DNA from: Salibacteraceae bacterium
Lineage (GTDB): Bacteria; Bacteroidota; Bacteroidia; Flavobacteriales_G; Salibacteraceae
Assembly: GCA_965661625.1 (NCBI GenBank)
Contig: CBFIEM010000011.1
Location: 26,148-90,147, forward strand
DNA: 64,000 nucleotides
Reading direction: 5' to 3'
Positions 249-10,571 of this stretch are shown here, in pieces. Made by a program: the position numbers and the translations under genes. Below the pieces are notes generated by a model. The model made no database searches, had not been told where the DNA came from, and worked only from the letters and a program-made list of their open reading frames with translations. Positions within the stretch are counted from its first letter, which is position 1. Each line of letters begins with the position of its first letter.

Positions 249-768
249 TCGCTTAATTATCAGACCACTTCGCACAGATGATGCGGTGTTCTTTATAGAA
301 ACACGCAATCACCCAGAAGTAAAACCTTGGATAGGGTTTGTGCCCACTACAACAAAAGAAGTTCACGCCTTTCAAGCAGGAAATGAGCAACGGTTAAAAC
401 AATTGGATGCATGGTATCAATGCATCATTGAGCTAAAGCCTGCACGAGGTTTAATAGGTGATATTGCCCTTCACTTCCTTCCGAATAATGAGGTAGAAAT
501 TGGGTATGTAATGCATCCCCAATTTACTGGCAAGGGATATATGAAAGAGGCATTACATGCCATAACCAAGTATGCTTTTGAGCACCTCGGTATTGCCCGT
601 AGTTTGTGCAATGTAGATCCTATAAACAAGGCCAGTATTGGAGTTTTAAAAGGCGTTGGATACAAGCATGTTGAAACTGTGCGAGGAGCATTCTTGTTTC
701 GGGAAAAATATGTTGACAACAGCACCTATTCAATTCGACCAGAAGAGATTACTCCTTACCGCGGTTAA
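232..768 (+). CDS. GNAT family N-acetyltransferase (RimJ/RimL-like)
   Basis: 178-aa ORF. 'NRLIIRPLRTDD', 'IGYVMHPQFTGKGYMKEAL' and 'DPINKASIGVLKGVGY' fit the GNAT acetyl-CoA binding fold. Confidence 0.8.
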   Translation: MQVTTNRLIIRPLRTDDAVFFIETRNHPEVKPWIGFVPTTTKEVHAFQAGNEQRLKQLDAWYQCIIELKPARGLIGDIALHFLPNNEVEIGYVMHPQFTGKGYMKEALHAITKYAFEHLGIARSLCNVDPINKASIGVLKGVGYKHVETVRGAFLFREKYVDNSTYSIRPEEITPYRG

Positions 769-1834
769 TCCAATTGTAAATGGTTTTGATCAATTGCTCA
801 GGTTCAAATGGCTTGAGAATGAATCCATTCATTCCGCAAGCTTGAATATCGTCTTTCACTTCCATAAATACAGAAGCTGACAGCGCTAATATCGGAGTTT
901 CCGTATTGAATTTACGTATTTCCCTACTCGCTTCATACCCATCTACAACTGGCATCTGAATATCCATCAAAATGAGATCGTAGGTATGCTTTTTAACCAG
1001 GTCTATGGCCTCCTGTCCATCAACCGCGACTGAAACGTTGAGGCTCGCATCTTCCAAAATCTGTTTTCCAACCATTACATTAATGGCATTATCCTCCACA
1101 AGAAGCACGTGTTCGTGGTTGAAATCGAAGCGTTCTCCAATGTCTTCAAACTTTTTATCCTCGTCCTGAACAACAGGAAACTCAGCCTCAAAAGAAAAAG
1201 TACTCCCTTTTCCTGCCTCACTTTCTACACGAATAGTACTCCCCATAGATTCAACAATTTTCTTAACAATAGGCAAGCCCAAACCAGTACCTCCATATAA
1301 CCTCGTAGTTGAGACCTCCGCCTGTGTAAAGGCCTGAAAAATGCGCTCTTGTTGTTCTTTTGAAATTCCTATACCCGAATCCTTAACCTTAGTTAAAAGC
1401 TTGACATACTTATCATTAGAGCTAACCACCTCAATTGTTAGCTTAACCTGTCCGTTATCTGTAAATTTAATGGCATTAGAAATTAAATTATTGATCACTT
1501 GATTAAACCTTACGATATCCACCCATAAATCAGGTAGATCTGCTGAAATATCAATATCAAATGAAACACCCTTTTTGATGCACGAGGGCTCATGAACTTT
1601 TCGAATTTGGCTAATTGCATATTTCAGATCAGCAGGAATTGGATCGAGGTCCACTTCTTCATGCTCCATTTTACTATAATCCAAGACTTGATTCAGTAAA
1701 TTCAGCAACAACTTTCCCGAATAATTTAACGCTTCGATATTTTCCACTTGATCTTCTCGCGGTTCTTTTTCACGCAGGATATGGGATAATCCAATCACCG
1801 CATTTAGCGGGGTTCTAATTTCATGGCTCATCAT
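749..1834 (-). CDS. hybrid sensor histidine kinase/response regulator: kinase core plus receiver (downstream part of a gene interrupted by in-frame TAA 1868-1870)
   Basis: H-box 'MSHEIRTPLNAVIG', ATPase boxes 'NLISNAIKFT', 'DSGIGI', 'GGTGLGL', then receiver 'VLLVEDNAINV...ILMDIQMPVVDG...LKPF'. The frame continues upstream through 11 sense codons (GLSNAKSKFLS) to the TAA. Confidence 0.85.
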   Translation of the reverse strand: MMSHEIRTPLNAVIGLSHILREKEPREDQVENIEALNYSGKLLLNLLNQVLDYSKMEHEEVDLDPIPADLKYAISQIRKVHEPSCIKKGVSFDIDISADLPDLWVDIVRFNQVINNLISNAIKFTDNGQVKLTIEVVSSNDKYVKLLTKVKDSGIGISKEQQERIFQAFTQAEVSTTRLYGGTGLGLPIVKKIVESMGSTIRVESEAGKGSTFSFEAEFPVVQDEDKKFEDIGERFDFNHEHVLLVEDNAINVMVGKQILEDASLNVSVAVDGQEAIDLVKKHTYDLILMDIQMPVVDGYEASREIRKFNTETPILALSASVFMEVKDDIQACGMNGFILKPFEPEQLIKTIYNWINRGKE

Positions 1835-1867
1835 AGATAAGAACTTAGATTTCGCATTGGATAAACC

Positions 1868-2440
1868 TTATGCTTCCTCCCGCTTATTGTGCAAGTTCGT
1901 ATAGTAACGCATATTCAGAAAAGAGAAATAGGTGATTTGAAACGTGACCAATATGAACGTACTAACTACCGAAAATGGGTAAATGACAGATGCTGCCAAT
2001 TGCTGATCCATAGGTGATTGCCGGAATAAGGTAAAATCTGTAAAAAACAATCCAATCCACATAAAAATGGACAACAATGAAAACATGATAATAAATACCT
2101 TTTCCCGTCTAAATGAAAATAGTAAAAACGGAAGGCCAAGCGCAAACATGAGCACATATTCAACACTACCTGCTTTGCCCAAATAAGACGCAGTTATCCC
2201 TACACTAAAAATTAAGGTTAGCATATACGTGATGCGCGAAAAGAGCAAGATTCTTTTAACTGTAAGAAAAAGGCAAAAAAGAAAAATCAGTGTAGTTCCA
2301 CCGATAAAATAAGACAACGTATAAAGTTCTAGACTGCGCGATAGAAAAAACCAAACAGCAGATAAGATACCGGTAAATGCTGCAACCGCTATGGAAAGTT
2401 GGTACCTCCGCTCACTGTGCAACTTCTCTTCATTCTCCAT
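1868..2440 (-). CDS. polytopic membrane sensor module, upstream part of the interrupted hybrid kinase
   Basis: 190-aa very hydrophobic ORF with about six predicted TM segments. It ends REEA-TAA in the same frame as the kinase core. The intact paralog at 40520-43096 has the same layout. Confidence 0.6.
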   Translation of the reverse strand: MENEEKLHSERRYQLSIAVAAFTGILSAVWFFLSRSLELYTLSYFIGGTTLIFLFCLFLTVKRILLFSRITYMLTLIFSVGITASYLGKAGSVEYVLMFALGLPFLLFSFRREKVFIIMFSLLSIFMWIGLFFTDFTLFRQSPMDQQLAASVIYPFSVVSTFILVTFQITYFSFLNMRYYTNLHNKREEA

Positions 2441-2494: not shown

Positions 2495-3022
2495 CTAATT
2501 CAGCAAGCCAATATGCTCATCATAAACCATTTTTCGTTCTTCAAATGAAGAAGAATCAAAATCAAATACTTCACACTGATTGATTGGTTTTACATACAAA
2601 TGAAGAGTCATTGCGCGGTCTCCACATTTATTACGCAACATATGATACCCACTCTCTTTGCTCATGAAGGTTAAATCGCCTGGTTTTAAAACAGCTCTAG
2701 ATTCGGGACAAGGAGCTGATTCAGAGCATGAATAAAGCACCTCTTCAACATCGCCAAGCACCTGTTTTACCCAACACTGTTGACCATCGTGACCATGTAT
2801 TGGTGTTTCAGAATTAGGCTCCCAACAAAGCAAAAGCAATTCAAATTTGCTTGTGCGTTCCAAGCATATCCTCGTATAACTTTCTTCCTCCCACTGACCG
2901 TATTTCATTAACCAATCAGGATTAATATCAGTTGATTTTAATATTTGGTTGTAAACGGACGGTGCTGCATTGTTAAGCTGTTTAATCAGCTTTAAAACAG
3001 GGTCTTCATCTTTTGGAAGCAT
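2495..3022 (-). CDS. cdo: cysteine dioxygenase type I (cupin)
   Basis: 175 aa, aligned by eye with mammalian CDO1. Shared elements: 'YTR' (Tyr58/Arg60), 'LLCW', 'IHGH' (His86/His88), Cys seven residues after the first His (Cys93 position), 'YHMLRN' (His140), 'LHLY' (Tyr157). Confidence 0.8.
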   Translation of the reverse strand: MLPKDEDPVLKLIKQLNNAAPSVYNQILKSTDINPDWLMKYGQWEEESYTRICLERTSKFELLLLCWEPNSETPIHGHDGQQCWVKQVLGDVEEVLYSCSESAPCPESRAVLKPGDLTFMSKESGYHMLRNKCGDRAMTLHLYVKPINQCEVFDFDSSSFEERKMVYDEHIGLLN

Positions 3023-3137
3023 ATTCTGTTAACTTTGTTTCTGATTGGTTTTTGTTTAAAATTGATTCAATTTTGAACGTTTTCATCACAATATTTCCAA
3101 AATTTACTCTTTTTAATCGATTTCAATAAAAAATAGC

Positions 3138-4523
3138 ATGGCTGAATTTCTTTCTCAATTTGAAAAAATAGCAAGCGCATTATTAGAAGCAGAGCAAAAA
3201 ACTCCCACAGCCACGCAAATTCCTTCAACGAAACTTTTTGATAAGCTCGATTTATCCTTAACTGAGCAAGGCGTTGACCGTAAAGACATGTACAAAAGTT
3301 TGGAAGAACTAGCGCTTCAGACCCCACGCACAGCATCCCGTACATTTTTTAATCAACTTTTTGGTGGGCGAAATACCGATGCAGTTCTCGGAGAACTTTT
3401 AGCCGTGTTGCTAAATACCAGTATGTATACCTACAAAGCAGCCGGAGCAATGATTGGTGTCGAAAAAGAAATTTTAAATCAAGTGTGTAACTTGGTTGGT
3501 TGGGGGCCAAAATCAGGAGGAACAATGCCACCTGGAGGATCCATGGCCAATTTCATGGCTCTTTTAATGGCAAGAGATGCATATGACCCTACCACTCCTG
3601 ATCAAGGAGTAAGCAAATCATTTACAGTGTATACTTCTGATGAATCCCATTATTCAACGGTTAAGAATGCCGCTTTTGCAGGGATTGGAAAAGAGCAAGT
3701 TCGAAAAATCCGCACTCAACATACGGGTCAAATGGATATGGAGGAACTCGCCGAAGTAATGACTCAAGATATAAATGATGGCTTTACTCCAATGCTCATT
3801 AACTTAACTGCGGGAACAACTGTTCTTGGAGCGTTTGACCCGATAAGACCAGCTGTGGAAATCGCTAAACAGTTTAATTGTTGGGTACATGTTGATGGAG
3901 CATATTGTGGGGCTGTGTTATTGAGTGATAAATACCAGCACTTGATTGATGGAATTGAACTTGTTGATTCGTTCAGTTTTAATGCTCATAAAATGCTGAG
4001 TACACCACTCTCCTGCTCTATCCTGGTTGCTAAGGATGAAGAGTACCTGAATAAATCGTTCTCAAAAGAAGCTGCATACCTTTACCAAACTGATGACGAT
4101 GGGTTTAATCCTGGGAAAACTTCATTGCAATGCGGTAGAAGAAACGACGCACTCAAATTGTGGGCACTTTGGAAGCATGTTGGTACGCGTGGACTAGCGA
4201 AGATTGTAAATCATCAGTTTGACCTTGCAGAATACGCTAGAACGTACATCCGGGGAAATGCTGATTACACCCTTTACAGTTTTGATGAATCCGTTTCAAT
4301 ATGCTTCAACTATAAAAATATTGACCCAGTAGCGTTGTGCACCCGTCTTTACGAAAAGAATGAATTAATGGTGGGTTACGGTTCGTCTCATGGAAAAACA
4401 TTCATTCGACTAATTACAGTCAATGCTCAAAACTCAACCCAAGAGATTGATTGGTTTTTTCAACGCTTAGAACGCTTTGTTGAGCAGCATGAGGCTGATT
4501 TAGTTTCATTTGTAAACGACTAA
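3138..4523 (+). CDS. PLP-dependent group II decarboxylase, cysteine sulfinate decarboxylase-like
   Basis: 461 aa. 'FFNQLFGG', 'LNTSMYTYK' and the PLP-lysine motif 'SFNAHKML' are typical of the GAD/CSAD family. Confidence 0.8.
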   Translation: MAEFLSQFEKIASALLEAEQKTPTATQIPSTKLFDKLDLSLTEQGVDRKDMYKSLEELALQTPRTASRTFFNQLFGGRNTDAVLGELLAVLLNTSMYTYKAAGAMIGVEKEILNQVCNLVGWGPKSGGTMPPGGSMANFMALLMARDAYDPTTPDQGVSKSFTVYTSDESHYSTVKNAAFAGIGKEQVRKIRTQHTGQMDMEELAEVMTQDINDGFTPMLINLTAGTTVLGAFDPIRPAVEIAKQFNCWVHVDGAYCGAVLLSDKYQHLIDGIELVDSFSFNAHKMLSTPLSCSILVAKDEEYLNKSFSKEAAYLYQTDDDGFNPGKTSLQCGRRNDALKLWALWKHVGTRGLAKIVNHQFDLAEYARTYIRGNADYTLYSFDESVSICFNYKNIDPVALCTRLYEKNELMVGYGSSHGKTFIRLITVNAQNSTQEIDWFFQRLERFVEQHEADLVSFVND

Positions 4524-4528
4524 TTTTT

Positions 4529-6025
4529 ATGGTTGCCAAGGTTATTGCTTTAGCTTTATACGTCTTAATTCTTCTATTGATAGGGGTTGTTGCGAGCAGG
4601 CGTGTTAAAAACATCAGTGACTTTTACGTTGGTGGAAAAAAAATAGGCTATTGGGCCGTTGCCTTCTCTGCCAGAGCTACAGGTGAATCTGGATGGATAT
4701 TGATTGGCCTTACAGGTATGGGAGCCTTGGCTGGTTATTCTGCTTATTGGGTAGTTGTTGGTGAAGTTGTAGGTGTTGCCATATCTTGGATGTTCATGGC
4801 CAAGCGCTTTAAACGGTTATCAGACAGTTACCAATCATTGACAATCCCCGACTTTTTGGAGTCTCACTTTAAAACTACAACACATAGACTGCGCGCTGTA
4901 TCAGCAGCAATATTGAGTGTCTTTGTGGTAATCTACGTAAGTACACAAATCGATGCCACTGGAATTGCTTTTGAGTCTATGCTCGGCATGAACTACTACA
5001 CAGGAGCATTAGTGGGATTCCTAATTGTTCTTACATACATTTTCATTGGAGGGTTTTTAGCGGTTGTGTGGTCAGACTTGTTTCAAGGTTTTTTAATGTT
5101 CTTAGGCCTGGTTGTTCTTCCTGTTTGGGCATACATTCAAATGGATGTAGATTCCATTTCTGCGAGCTTGTCTGCCATTGACCCGCAGTTAACTTCCATT
5201 TGGGGAATTCATGATGACCCTTGGTTAAACGTAGCATCGCTATTGGGATTTTCTATGATCGGACTTGGGTTTCTTGGCTCTCCTCAAGTATATGTGCGGT
5301 TTATGTCGATTAAAAATGAGGCCGAAATTGTAAAGGGAAAATGGGTTGCTATTTTTTTCACTGCAATTACTGATACTGCAGCTGTAAGTATTGGCGTGCT
5401 AGCCCGGGTTTTCTTCACCGATATCGGCGCTGATCCAGAGACTACTTTGGGAGTTGGGGGAGCTGATGTTTTAAACTTAATGGTGGAAGAGTTTCTACCC
5501 CTAGGAATAGCTGCAATTTACATTGCAATTGTTTTGTCAGCTATTATGTCCACCATTGACTCCTTGCTAGTTGTTGCATCTAGTGCAGTAACAAGAGACT
5601 TTTACCAAAAGATTTTTCATCCGGAAATTCCAGATGATAAGCTCACGCGTATATCGAGGTTTACAACCTTAACTATGGCCATTTTAGCTCTTATAATTGC
5701 TCTGATCATGGCTTGGGTCTCCCCAGATAGACAGGTTTTTTGGGTTATTATTTTTGGTTGGTCAGGTATAGCAGCTAGTTTCTGTCCGGTAATAATCCTC
5801 TCTTTATTTTGGAAGAATTATACGGCGAATGGTGCCTTGGCATCAATGATTACGGGATTTTTATGCGTTCCTTTTTTCAAATTTGTAATCGAACCACTTC
5901 CAACCATTGGGTTATATTTCCAGCAGCTTGATGTCCTAGCACCTTCTTTCGTCATTTCTATCGTTTCAGGAATACTCGTTTCTAAATATGCAAAAGCGAC
6001 TCAAAAGCCTGTTGATGTAACATAA
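4529..6025 (+). CDS. sodium:solute symporter (SSS family, PutP/PanF-like)
   Basis: 498 aa with many hydrophobic segments. N-terminal 'GGKKIGYWAVAFSARATGESGW' is SSS-like. Starts 5 nt after the decarboxylase stop. Confidence 0.8.
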   Translation: MVAKVIALALYVLILLLIGVVASRRVKNISDFYVGGKKIGYWAVAFSARATGESGWILIGLTGMGALAGYSAYWVVVGEVVGVAISWMFMAKRFKRLSDSYQSLTIPDFLESHFKTTTHRLRAVSAAILSVFVVIYVSTQIDATGIAFESMLGMNYYTGALVGFLIVLTYIFIGGFLAVVWSDLFQGFLMFLGLVVLPVWAYIQMDVDSISASLSAIDPQLTSIWGIHDDPWLNVASLLGFSMIGLGFLGSPQVYVRFMSIKNEAEIVKGKWVAIFFTAITDTAAVSIGVLARVFFTDIGADPETTLGVGGADVLNLMVEEFLPLGIAAIYIAIVLSAIMSTIDSLLVVASSAVTRDFYQKIFHPEIPDDKLTRISRFTTLTMAILALIIALIMAWVSPDRQVFWVIIFGWSGIAASFCPVIILSLFWKNYTANGALASMITGFLCVPFFKFVIEPLPTIGLYFQQLDVLAPSFVISIVSGILVSKYAKATQKPVDVT

Positions 6026-6253: not shown

Positions 6254-6285
6254 AAAAAAGGCACTCATTTGAGTGCCTTTTTTTA
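6254..6285. terminator. bidirectional rho-independent terminator
   Basis: A-run, stem GGCACTC / GAGTGCC (loop ATTT), then T-run. Lies just downstream of the minus-strand DUF2911 gene stop. Confidence 0.7.
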
Positions 6286-7029
6286 TTCACGAATAAGTTT
6301 CAAGTATTTCTCAGAATTCTCTTTTACATTCGGTTGAGGACTTAAGCTCAGCGCCATCTTAAACGCCTCCTCAGCTTCATCAAACTGTTTTAACTTGAAA
6401 AGTGCTTCTCCGAGTGAGTCAAAAGCATTAGCACTTTTGGGATACTTCGCAACGTTCGCTTCGAATACATCCAGAGCCCCTTTCACGTACCCTTCATTCA
6501 TCAATTGATAACCATATTGATTCATTTGTACTTCAGAGGCCTCTTTTAATGCGTCTTCCATTACAGCCTTAGCCTCTTCCAATTTTCCAACCTTTCTTAA
6601 AATTGCTGCATTCACATTCCTTGTGATGAAATTCGGATTAATCTTCAAAGCCTGTTTACTCCATGCTAAAGCCGTTTCCATGTGAATATTATGTTGGCTT
6701 AAATAAACAGCTCCACTATTATAACCTTGCCATGAAAAACCTGTAGGACCCGTTAGTTCAACGCGTGCATTTTCAAAAACCAATTCAGGAACATCAAAAG
6801 CGACGGGCACTATAAACCGTTTGAGCTCCCAGTCTAAAACTAAATTGACTGAAGTAGGTTTAACATCTACAAACTGATAAGTTAACCGTTCTGTGTGTTC
6901 ATGGTTAATCACTTCCACTTGTGCTCGAAGGATATCATTTTCTGGGTTATAAAAATAAGAGCCCCATGCTTCATTGTCAGCTGATAAAATCACTTCACCT
7001 GAACCGTCTTTGTTTATGGTAAAGAACAA
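6283..7029 (-). CDS. DUF2911-family protein, C-terminal part with TPR repeats (downstream of in-frame TAA 7099-7101)
   Basis: Frame is continuous upstream (NTTLSITHKAKIAGKEVAAGKYG) to the TAA. The C-terminal half has TPR-like repeats ('ALKINPNF', 'AKYPKSANAFDSLGEALFKL'). Confidence 0.7.
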   Translation of the reverse strand: MFFTINKDGSGEVILSADNEAWGSYFYNPENDILRAQVEVINHEHTERLTYQFVDVKPTSVNLVLDWELKRFIVPVAFDVPELVFENARVELTGPTGFSWQGYNSGAVYLSQHNIHMETALAWSKQALKINPNFITRNVNAAILRKVGKLEEAKAVMEDALKEASEVQMNQYGYQLMNEGYVKGALDVFEANVAKYPKSANAFDSLGEALFKLKQFDEAEEAFKMALSLSPQPNVKENSEKYLKLIRE

Positions 7030-7098
7030 ACCGTACTTACCTGCAGCAACCTCCTTACCAGCAATTTTGGCTTTATGAGTTATTGAGAGTGTCGTATT

Positions 7099-7359
7099 TT
7101 AATTTGCTCCCGCTCGCCATGGTGCTTCGTTTCCACTCCCAAAATTAAAGGTGTTCCATCCAAAGGGTACAAGTTCACCCCAAATATTTCGTCCCCTTAC
7201 TGCTGGTCGCGAATAATTCACCTCTATATCAGAAATTCCTATGATTTGGGAGACAGAAGCCGCTGGACTTGCAGTTCTTGGTGTAGTAATAGCCTGCCCA
7301 TAAAGTAAAGTTGTCAATGCAACTAAACTAGCCGTTGTCATTAAGCCTATTTGATTCAT
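7099..7359 (-). CDS. DUF2911-family protein, N-terminal part with signal peptide
   Basis: Signal peptide 'MNQIGLMTTASLVALTTLLYGQA', then 'EVNYSRPAVRGRNIWGELVPFG...APWRAGAN', which matches the conserved DUF2911 N-terminal block as I remember it. Confidence 0.7.
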   Translation of the reverse strand: MNQIGLMTTASLVALTTLLYGQAITTPRTASPAASVSQIIGISDIEVNYSRPAVRGRNIWGELVPFGWNTFNFGSGNEAPWRAGAN

Positions 7360-8872: not shown

Positions 8873-8957
8873 AAAATGCTCCTTAATTTTATACATACAA
8901 ACCCGTTTCTTCATATTCCTTTAAGTACATTTGCCGCCCATTTTGGTATACATTTTT

Positions 8958-10571
8958 ATGAAAAGAATATTCAACAATTTCATTGGTGACCCTAAAAGCG
9001 ACATTTTCTCAGGCTTAACAGTGGCACTTGCCCTGGTGCCTGAGGCCGTTGCTTTCGCATTTGTAGCCGGTATTGACCCACTTGTTGGGCTTTATGGAGC
9101 ATTTATGATGGGATTAATCACATCTCTTTTTGGTGGCCGACCAGGAATGATTTCTGGTGCTACCGGAGCAATGGCTGTAGTAATGGTACATCTCATACAG
9201 AAAGGCAATGAAGTGGGATTAGAGCTCACTCAACCCATAGATCAACTGGGGTTAAAGTGGCTATTCATCACCTTGTTGATTGTAGGTGCCATTCAAATAA
9301 GCGCAGGCATACTAAAGCTCGGTAAATTTGTTCGCCTTATTCCACACCCCGTTATGCTCGGGTTTGTAAATGGGCTAGCCATTGTTATTTTCATGTCACA
9401 GCTAGGCATGTTCAAAACGTTACAAGATGGCCAAATGGCCTGGATGACAGGTTCTGATTTAGTAATGATGTTGGGATTGGTTGGCCTAACCATGGGGATC
9501 ATGTTTGGTCTTCCAAAGCTCAATAAGAAACTTCCTGCTGCATTGATTGCAATTGTTGTTGTTGCAGTAATAAAGATTGGAGCCGGGCTTGAAGTTAGTA
9601 CTGTAGGATCCTTTATTCAAGATGGCGGTGGATCTGGTTTAAAAGGATCCCTTCCAACCTTTCAAACGGATTTGTTTGCAGTATTTGGAACCCTTGTCGG
9701 TCATTGGAGCCTCATTATTTCTACAGCATTTATACTCGCTGCAGTTGGTTTAATTGAATCGTTAATGACCTTGAACCTGATTGATGAATTAACAGAAAGT
9801 CGTGGAAGTGGAAATCGCGAATGTATAGCACAAGGTGCTGCAAATACAGTGAATGGACTTTTTGGAGGAATGGGTGGTTGCGCTATGATCGGGCAATCGA
9901 TAATTAATGTAAACTCCGGTGGTAGAGGAAGACTTTCTGGTTTAGTTGCTGCTCTTGCCCTACTCTCTTTTATCCTTTTCGGAGCCCCATTAATTGAACA
10001 AATTCCAATTGGAGCATTGGTTGGTGTGATGTTTATGGTTGTTATTGGAACATTCGCTTGGAGTAGTTTTAGAATTATTCGGAAGATTCCAGTCGCAGAT
10101 GCAATTGTTTTAGTAGCTGTATCGGCTATTACCGTGTGGCAGGATCTTGCTATCGCCGTGGTATCTGGCGTTATCATTTCAGCGCTTGTTTTTGCTTGGA
10201 AAAACGCTACGATGATCCGAGCTCGTAAGCGACTGAAAGAAGATGGAACACGGGTTTATGAGATTTGGGGGCCACTATTTTTTGGTTCCGTACAATCATT
10301 CAACAGTAAGTTTGACATTAAAAATGACCCAAAACATATTGAAATTGATTTTATTGAATCACGTGTAAGCGATCATTCAGGGATAGAAGCCTTGACAAAC
10401 GTTATGGACAAATATTTAGATCAGGGAAAGTCTGTTACATTGACTCACCTCAGTCCGGAATGCCAGTCGTTACTTGTAAAGTCGAATGAAAATTTTAGGA
10501 AATACATCCAAGCAAGCATTGATGACCCTCGCTATTATGTAGTGACTGACTTAATGGATGCAGAGGTTTAA
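8958..10571 (+). CDS. SulP family inorganic anion transporter with C-terminal STAS domain
   Basis: 'DIFSGLTVALALVPEAVAFAFVAG' and 'NRECIAQGAANTVNGLFGGMGG' are SulP signatures. The C-terminal 'VYEIWGPLFFGS' block is STAS-like. Start set at ATG 8958. Confidence 0.85.
   Translation: MKRIFNNFIGDPKSDIFSGLTVALALVPEAVAFAFVAGIDPLVGLYGAFMMGLITSLFGGRPGMISGATGAMAVVMVHLIQKGNEVGLELTQPIDQLGLKWLFITLLIVGAIQISAGILKLGKFVRLIPHPVMLGFVNGLAIVIFMSQLGMFKTLQDGQMAWMTGSDLVMMLGLVGLTMGIMFGLPKLNKKLPAALIAIVVVAVIKIGAGLEVSTVGSFIQDGGGSGLKGSLPTFQTDLFAVFGTLVGHWSLIISTAFILAAVGLIESLMTLNLIDELTESRGSGNRECIAQGAANTVNGLFGGMGGCAMIGQSIINVNSGGRGRLSGLVAALALLSFILFGAPLIEQIPIGALVGVMFMVVIGTFAWSSFRIIRKIPVADAIVLVAVSAITVWQDLAIAVVSGVIISALVFAWKNATMIRARKRLKEDGTRVYEIWGPLFFGSVQSFNSKFDIKNDPKHIEIDFIESRVSDHSGIEALTNVMDKYLDQGKSVTLTHLSPECQSLLVKSNENFRKYIQASIDDPRYYVVTDLMDAEV

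Follow-up and report, generated by a model that had tools for sequence, protein, structure and literature searches.

Cysteine dioxygenase (CDO) and the decarboxylase of cysteine sulfinate (CSAD) are the two enzymes of the animal route from cysteine to hypotaurine, the precursor of taurine, a pathway which in mammals also includes an FMO1-type hypotaurine oxidase. With regard to bacteria, later papers which cite the study of Agnello et al. (2013, ACS Chem Biol 8:2264) credit it with the expression of the CSAD of Synechococcus PCC 7335 and with the description of the pathway in marine cyanobacteria and flavobacteria, where the CSAD gene was found in an operon with that of CDO. A locus encoding the same pair of enzymes, accompanied by a Na+/solute symporter, was identified in a 64,000-nucleotide stretch of the genome of a Salibacteraceae bacterium (contig CBFIEM010000011.1; the whole stretch is referred to here as the window). 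The identities of its genes, their catalytic residues, their linkage and their co-occurrence make it highly probable that a two-step route from cysteine via cysteine sulfinate to hypotaurine is encoded here. By the account of those citing papers, the pair is not new, its occurrence in marine bacteria having been described in 2013, and the window locus is one more example of it.

Three ORFs form the cluster. The first encodes a CDO of 175 aa (positions 2495-3022, minus strand; Pfam CDO_I PF05995, E-value 6e-16), the second a CSAD-type group II pyridoxal phosphate (PLP) decarboxylase of 461 aa (3138-4523, plus strand; Pyridoxal_deC PF00282, 3e-69) and the third a PutP-like symporter of the sodium/solute symporter (SSS) family of 498 aa (4529-6025, plus strand; SSF PF00474, 3e-72). 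The CDO and decarboxylase genes diverge from a spacer of 115 nt (3023-3137), while the stop codon of the decarboxylase (TAA, 4521-4523) lies 5 nt upstream of the ATG of the symporter at 4529; given this gap, the latter two genes are probably co-transcribed. The coordinates, strands, spacer and gap given in an earlier note on this DNA agree exactly with the ORF list and the sequence, and the three families to which that note had assigned the proteins were borne out by Pfam.

The decarboxylase (234 bits with PF00282) has as its best PDB matches human CSAD (2.4e-76) and mouse CSAD (2.7e-75), followed by GADL1 (1e-72), GAD67 (1e-65) and then GAD65. Structures of the 2,4-diaminobutyrate (DABA) decarboxylase type are matched at 1e-51 only, after CSAD, GADL1 and GAD. 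Its motifs 'FFNQLFGG' (residues 70-77) and 'LNTSMYTYK' (residues 92-100) have 'FFNQLFSG' and 'LNTSQYTYE' as their counterparts in human CSAD, whereas GAD65/67 carry 'NQLS...NTNMFTYE'. Residues F75, S95 and Y97 align with F94, S114 and Y116 of human CSAD (an F/S/Y triplet), the corresponding selectivity positions in GAD65/67 being S/N/F. The earlier note had quoted the CSAD and GAD motifs and had assigned Phe, Ser and Tyr to the three positions; its strings match the human CSAD and GAD65/67 sequences, and its assignment is upheld by alignment with human and mouse CSAD. Other key residues are also retained, namely the PLP-binding lysine K285 (Lys305), H171 (His191), Y314 (Tyr335) and R424 (Arg466), all four of which are invariant in 81/81 sequences of the family. 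The structure of mouse CSAD identified Phe94, His191, Lys305, Tyr335 and Arg466 as key residues, with Phe94 specifically affecting the binding of cysteine sulfinate (bioRxiv 10.1101/2020.09.25.308866). At position 94, Phe is found in 78 of the 81 decarboxylases and Tyr in 3; these three possess a GADL1-like Y/S/Y triplet and all lack an adjacent CDO, while every CDO-adjacent decarboxylase has F/S/Y (50/50). The histidine and tyrosine decarboxylase equivalogs of NCBIfam were rejected as candidates, their scores being far under the cut-offs.

The CDO scored 58.8 bits with PF05995 (gathering cut-off 23), and its best PDB matches are mammalian CDO1 (9e-16) and then the CDO of Bacillus subtilis (7e-7), with 3-mercaptopropionate dioxygenases appearing in this ranking at 3e-4 and weaker. 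The three-histidine iron site is kept (H76/H78/H127, corresponding to His86/His88/His140), as are Y49 (Tyr58), R51 (Arg60), C83 (Cys93), H141 (His155) and Y143 (Tyr157), with T139 standing at the position of Ser153. When the window CDO was aligned with 49 CDOs adjoining decarboxylase homologues in other genomes, the catalytic positions were invariant in 50/50 sequences, including R51 and Y49 of the 'YTR' motif and the Cys93/Tyr157 pair; the exception is position 153, occupied by Thr in 28 and Ser in 21. Arg60 and Tyr58 bind the carboxylate of cysteine and separate CDO from the Gln-type 3-mercaptopropionate dioxygenases. It has been described that Arg60 and Tyr157 confer cysteine specificity on CDO and that the Cys93-Tyr157 cross-link is a feature of the mammalian enzyme (PMC10966181). 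As Arg60/Tyr157 and Cys93/Tyr157 are both kept, the window CDO is, by its residue signature, Arg-type, cross-link-capable and eukaryote-like.

Homologues of the decarboxylase were identified in at least 516 matching stretches of species-representative genomes, mostly from marine Flavobacteriales, Saprospiraceae, Crocinitomicaceae, Vicingaceae and Roseivirga, with a few from Hyphomonadaceae/Caulobacterales. Cultured carriers of the pair include Psychroflexus planctonicus CGMCC 1.12931 and P. salis CGMCC 1.12925 (loci L012 and L037). Among the best 80 of these stretches, on which all locus counts given here are based, CDO adjoins the decarboxylase in 50, either divergently as in the window or co-directionally upstream. 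Co-occurrence was determined in 60 close relatives and in a 400-genome sample of the phylum. A close CDO is present in 9/9 decarboxylase-positive close relatives and in 1/51 negative ones (an 83%-complete genome; Fisher p = 7e-10), and in 4/5 positive against 0/395 negative genomes of the phylum sample (Fisher p < 1e-8). A single polypeptide combining both enzymes was also found: in P0121 (634 aa, 54% identical; locus L094, 5001-6905), residues 14-162 form a CDO_I domain and residues 217-578 the decarboxylase, and the protein occurs on independent contigs from several samples. This fusion is Rosetta-stone support for the predicted pairing of CDO and decarboxylase. Its gene begins before the preceding OsmC gene has ended, MsrA (PMSR) and SelO genes lie upstream and a symporter gene is absent; this neighbourhood is one of oxidative-stress genes and gives a hint of an antioxidant role. 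Near-perfect co-occurrence, adjacency in 50/80 loci and the fusion protein together make the cysteine-to-hypotaurine route well supported.

The earlier note had regarded prokaryotic CDO-CSAD pairs as already reported, which the papers that cite Agnello et al. (2013) corroborate, and had suggested a search for the gene triplet, which indeed recurs in other Bacteroidota. Its description of such pairs as rare does not fit the breadth of the decarboxylase family, present in 9/60 close relatives and about 1% of the phylum-wide sample. Nor are the proteins usually annotated only as glutamate decarboxylase, as it had stated: JGI labels several members 'sulfinoalanine decarboxylase/aspartate 1-decarboxylase' and NCBI uses generic PLP-enzyme names.

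Several further arrangements were noted within the family. In P0225 (715 aa), the C-terminal part of a PALP domain (cysteine/cysteate-synthase type) is joined to a decarboxylase with a Y/N/H triplet, and this protein may represent a different route, possibly of a serine/sulfate type, in another lineage. Decarboxylase homologues 56-60% identical to those of Bacteroidota were found without adjacent CDO in metagenome-assembled genomes (MAGs) of Caulobacterales, Hyphomonadaceae and Litorimonas (loci L020, L024, L028 and L077). Hyphomonadaceae are known for taurine-amide glycolipids, and copies of this kind may feed the synthesis of lipid head groups; errors in MAG binning are also possible. Where CDO is missing from the locus, the genes beside the decarboxylase (NqrA, T9SS plug, ApaG and a glycosyltransferase) gave no clue to its substrate.

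In the proposed pathway, the Fe(II)-dependent CDO would oxidise L-cysteine to cysteine sulfinate, and the CSAD-type PLP decarboxylase would remove its alpha-carboxyl group to yield hypotaurine. These are the conversions that the earlier note had assigned to the two enzymes, and the Arg-type CDO residues, the CSAD residues and the linkage of the genes argue for the assignment. The product would be kept as hypotaurine, or as taurine after slow or other oxidation, and would serve as a compatible solute and/or antioxidant in this marine planktonic member of the Bacteroidota; the window sequence itself occurs in marine plankton metagenomes. No RNA-seq run was found to contain the locus. The taurine-degrading enzyme Xsc was not detected above the cut-off in any of 32 genomes that encode the enzymes or the symporter (27.5 bits against 676 in the organism's own genome), and no credible match to an FMO-type hypotaurine oxidase was found in the genome of the organism, which is 2.74 Mb in size and 99.6% complete. 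With neither enzyme detected, the product is probably retained and not broken down, and the route may end at hypotaurine itself. The putatively co-transcribed PutP-like importer, predicted to be Na+-coupled, would belong functionally to the same module. Taken as a whole, an explanation in which the two-step route is encoded, its product is retained as a solute or antioxidant and the symporter forms part of the module appears likely.

The sulfur supply of the host was also considered. The NIR_SIR domain of assimilatory sulfite/nitrite reductases was found in 0/24 genomes of the host family, the 99.6%-complete genome of the organism included, and in 11/14 control genomes; the host family is thus apparently unable to assimilate sulfate, and the sulfur of cysteine would have to come from reduced external sources. 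A SulP/STAS permease is encoded at positions 8931-10571 of the window despite the missing NIR_SIR domain. That scarce reduced sulfur would be spent on the product suggests that it is valuable to these organisms.

The symporter (4529-6025) gave 244 bits with PF00474 and 222.5 bits with TIGR00813 (cut-off 184). With the PutP equivalog TIGR02121 it scored 333.8 bits, under the cut-off of 515.5, and on these scores it is a member of the SSS family which is most like PutP without falling within the PutP equivalog. No close solved structure was found, the best being vSGLT (97 bits). In an alignment with E. coli PutP, to which identity is 30%, residues S57, G58 and Y140 are conserved in the family, as are A337, S340 and T341 of the Na+ site, and D55G, W244I and Y248F are invariant differences; Asp55, Tyr140, Trp244 and Tyr248 are functional residues of PutP. 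Tyr140 has been reported to mark proline-specific members (PMC3866251). Orthologues of the symporter are 64-72% identical, a higher conservation than that of the decarboxylase (52-62%) or of CDO (34-46%), and they adjoin the decarboxylase in 38/80 loci, in at least three arrangements with gaps of 5-77 nt. Among close relatives, an orthologue was found in 8/9 decarboxylase-positive and 2/51 negative genomes (both of the latter incomplete; Fisher p = 1.5e-7), and no further genome among them gave any symporter match at E < 1e-40. The corresponding figures for the phylum sample are 3/5 and 11/395 (Fisher p = 3e-4). On the strength of these statistics, the symporter is functionally linked to the predicted CDO/decarboxylase module.

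Several possibilities were considered for the solute carried. Uptake or recapture of hypotaurine or taurine is a tentative prediction from sequence, supply of cysteine a doubtful one, and transport of proline or another osmolyte seems unlikely; no single substrate is put forward more than tentatively. The earlier note had guessed at uptake or recycling of a sulfonate or amino-acid osmolyte, and a guess it is still. We know of no SSS-family transporter for hypotaurine or taurine, and animals transport taurine by a member of the SLC6/NSS family, not of SSS. In B. subtilis, OpuE recaptures self-made proline, and by analogy a similar logic of synthesis plus recapture is conceivable here; a 'make and recapture' module, in which CDO and the CSAD-type enzyme would be joined by a Na+/hypotaurine (or taurine) importer, is a speculative reading. 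A transporter serving the catabolism of taurine was discarded as an explanation, as no Xsc above the cut-off was detected in the 32 genomes mentioned.

Stand-alone copies of the symporter were observed in genomes lacking both enzymes, mostly belonging to one family of another class, where the orthologue occurs beside a more typical PutP-like paralogue. These lone orthologues (L082-L088, in genomes G302, G167, G298, G206, G286, G218 and others) are 65-68% identical, and each of them is accompanied by a PutP-like paralogue of 36% identity. In four such genomes the gene is divergent from a conserved operon encoding an MFS (ATG22-like) transporter, two bPH-domain proteins and a GNAT protein. The neighbours seen in enzyme-less genomes (MFS/ATG22, bPH, GNAT, ZIP, Sua5 and a DEAD helicase) provided no clue to the substrate.

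A number of observations weigh against the proposed route and its product, or against particular parts of the explanation. Animal CSAD and GADL1 also take aspartate and cysteate (bioRxiv 10.1101/2020.09.25.308866). A maximum-likelihood tree was calculated from 155 sequences, comprising the window enzyme, 16 further members of the family, 5 PDB references and 133 representatives chosen at 50% identity. In it, the window decarboxylase falls in a 19-member clade (SH-aLRT 100) within a 42-member clade (100), whereas the animal CSAD, GADL1 and GAD references form part of a separate 44-member clade (support 95). Furthermore, F/S/Y is widespread across the decarboxylase superfamily as sampled in this tree, and the S/N/F triplet of GAD looks derived. 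With the triplet so widespread and the bacterial clade separate, the motif is suggestive of specificity, not proof. CDO does not adjoin the decarboxylase in 30/80 loci, and 11 genomes without either enzyme possess the symporter orthologue, which is therefore not exclusive to the pathway. Finally, if reduced sulfur can be obtained only from outside, spending cysteine on the scale of an osmolyte would be costly, which lends some weight to a role in cysteine import or detoxification. Orthology with animal CSAD, as would be seen from nesting in its clade, is ruled out by the tree: the decarboxylase is CSAD-like in its active site and yet belongs to a distinct bacterial lineage. The term 'eukaryote-style' used in the earlier note holds for the residue signatures of both enzymes and not for the descent of the bacterial decarboxylases, which lie outside the animal CSAD clade; a recent acquisition of the gene by transfer from eukaryotes is not implied. 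Those checks suggested in the earlier note which could be run in silico all came out in its favour: by PDB ranking and NCBIfam scores, CSAD is the type closest to the enzyme, followed by GADL1 and next by GAD, and the DABA, siderophore and PanP types are remote.

The same enzymology could also serve as a disposal valve, in which the symporter would import cysteine or a related reduced-sulfur amino acid and the enzymes would clear its toxic excess, as CDO does in mammalian liver, leaving hypotaurine as a by-product. The retention by the symporter of S57, G58 and Y140, the amino-acid-type ligand residues of PutP, is consistent with such a role, as is the need for reduced sulfur from outside in a family with NIR_SIR in none of its 24 genomes. 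However, sulfite reductase is missing from all members of the family, yet the symporter is confined to the decarboxylase-positive ones and so would not be a general importer of sulfur sources. A decarboxylase would moreover be unnecessary for the mere disposal of cysteine sulfinate, and free cysteine is scarce in oxic seawater. A valve of this kind is considered unlikely.

Other explanations would give the decarboxylase a different substrate altogether. It could act, like GADL1 or insect ADC, as an aspartate 1-decarboxylase providing beta-alanine for pantothenate; the symporter would then carry a vitamin or proline, as a transporter of the PanF or PutP type, and the adjacency of CDO would be incidental. 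The JGI label includes this activity, animal CSAD and GADL1 accept aspartate as stated above, the symporter has a PanF match of 173.6 bits and three decarboxylases without adjacent CDO carry Y/S/Y; but the PanF score is far under its cut-off (328), as is that of the decarboxylase with the PanP aspartate decarboxylase equivalog (TIGR03799, 131 bits against 606), which was rejected, and the window enzyme has Phe, not Tyr, at position 94. The co-occurrence with CDO (p < 1e-8) and the existence of the CDO fusion also speak against an incidental adjacency. Since a canonical pyruvoyl PanD (164.8 bits) is encoded in the genome, the decarboxylase is not needed for beta-alanine, and we reject this role as very improbable. 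Hardly any credence is given to a glutamate or 2,4-diaminobutyrate decarboxylase acting in GABA, siderophore or polyamine metabolism, by which the locus would be no sulfur pathway at all. NCBI annotations are generic and the best NCBIfam match by name is the DABA decarboxylase of the RhbB type, although at 161 bits against a cut-off of 900 this equivalog (NF052646) was rejected. In addition, DABA-type structures rank under CSAD, GADL1, GAD and all 150 nearest representatives, the S/N/F triplet of GAD is absent, and siderophore or aminotransferase genes were not seen nearby. Hypotaurine synthesis from cysteine therefore remains the preferred explanation of the locus.

The divergent spacer (3023-3137) is AT-rich (22.6% GC), and an Rfam scan detected no leader, riboswitch or other Rfam element within it. 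Sigma-70 promoter scans are not applicable to Bacteroidota promoters; a candidate Bacteroidota-type -7 box, TAACTTTG, is present at 3030-3037 (plus strand) as a consensus match only. Downstream of the symporter, a palindromic hairpin with a 13-bp stem flanked by an A-run and a T-run was identified by terminator scan at 6254-6283, where a sub-threshold Rfam match to STnc40 also occurs (plus strand, 37.7 bits against a cut-off of 45). It is likely to act as a bidirectional terminator for the putative decarboxylase-symporter operon and a convergent DUF2911 gene. The GC content of the cluster equals the window average, and a genomic island signature is absent from it. Homologues of the decarboxylase from the same genus are 52-54% identical, and those from other orders up to 62%; together with its patchy distribution, this lower identity within the genus indicates that the cassette was spread by older horizontal exchange among marine Bacteroidota.

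Two genes interrupted by TAA codons flank the cluster within 6 kb. At 749-2440 (minus strand), two ORFs together make up a single hybrid sensor kinase, with membrane sensor, HisKA, HATPase and receiver domains, which is broken by one in-frame TAA at 1868-1870, across which the HisKA helix ('AKSKFLSMMSHEIRTP') runs in frame. A metagenome contig from run X1, which may be the source sample, reproduces this region without differences, the coverage of the interrupted genes by metagenome contigs being thin. The DUF2911/TPR gene downstream of the symporter (6283-7359, minus strand) likewise contains one in-frame TAA ('...WRAGAN*NTTLSI...'), with positions 1-45 of the Pfam DUF2911 model preceding the stop and positions 70-144 following it without a change of frame. 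As TAA is the genuine stop codon of the decarboxylase, this is no global recoding, and the interruptions may be pseudogenes or assembly errors. When pairs of ORFs that share a frame and are separated by one stop were counted across the genome, tight gene junctions dominated the total, which therefore did not discriminate.

In the ocean, taurine and hypotaurine are major labile currencies of sulfur and carbon, and animals and algae are usually regarded as their producers. If the proposed pathway operates, heterotrophic marine Bacteroidota, amounting to hundreds of species, would also be producers. Should the symporter import hypotaurine or taurine, these hundreds of species would be producers and scavengers alike, and organisms of another class in which it stands alone would be scavengers only. 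The symporter is in this respect a candidate for a new substrate specificity within the SSS family, and its link to the known pathway is a modest addition. Besides this link and its statistics, three further points go beyond the published accounts consulted: how widely the family occurs, the invariance of a CDO capable of the Cys-Tyr cross-link, and a host family which apparently does not assimilate sulfate.

Comparison of the window proteins with characterised homologues shows the catalytic and substrate-binding residues of mammalian CDO1 (PDB 2IC1/6BGF), its Cys93/Tyr157 pair included, and of mammalian CSAD (PDB 2JIS/6ZEK) to be the same here, although identity to the window enzymes is merely about 30-40%, the mammalian and bacterial decarboxylases lie in separate clades and no FMO1-type oxidase like that of the mammalian pathway was found in the genome of the organism. 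GADL1, the third-best PDB match, and the insect aspartate/cysteine sulfinate decarboxylases belong to the same superfamily and likewise decarboxylate acidic amino acids, GADL1 differing by its Tyr at position 94. PutP and OpuE share with the symporter its fold family, the Na+ site and the ligand residues S57/G58/Y140; the low identity to E. coli PutP, the score under the equivalog cut-off and the three invariant substitutions set the window family apart. The closest system is the operon of Agnello et al. (2013), which, as citing papers describe it, has the same clustered CDO and CSAD genes, the F/S/Y triplet and a marine habitat in common with the window locus. The latter differs from that description in its divergent arrangement and its putatively co-transcribed PutP-like symporter, and the number of stretches carrying the family lies far above the 'few marine microbes' reported for the pathway in 2013.

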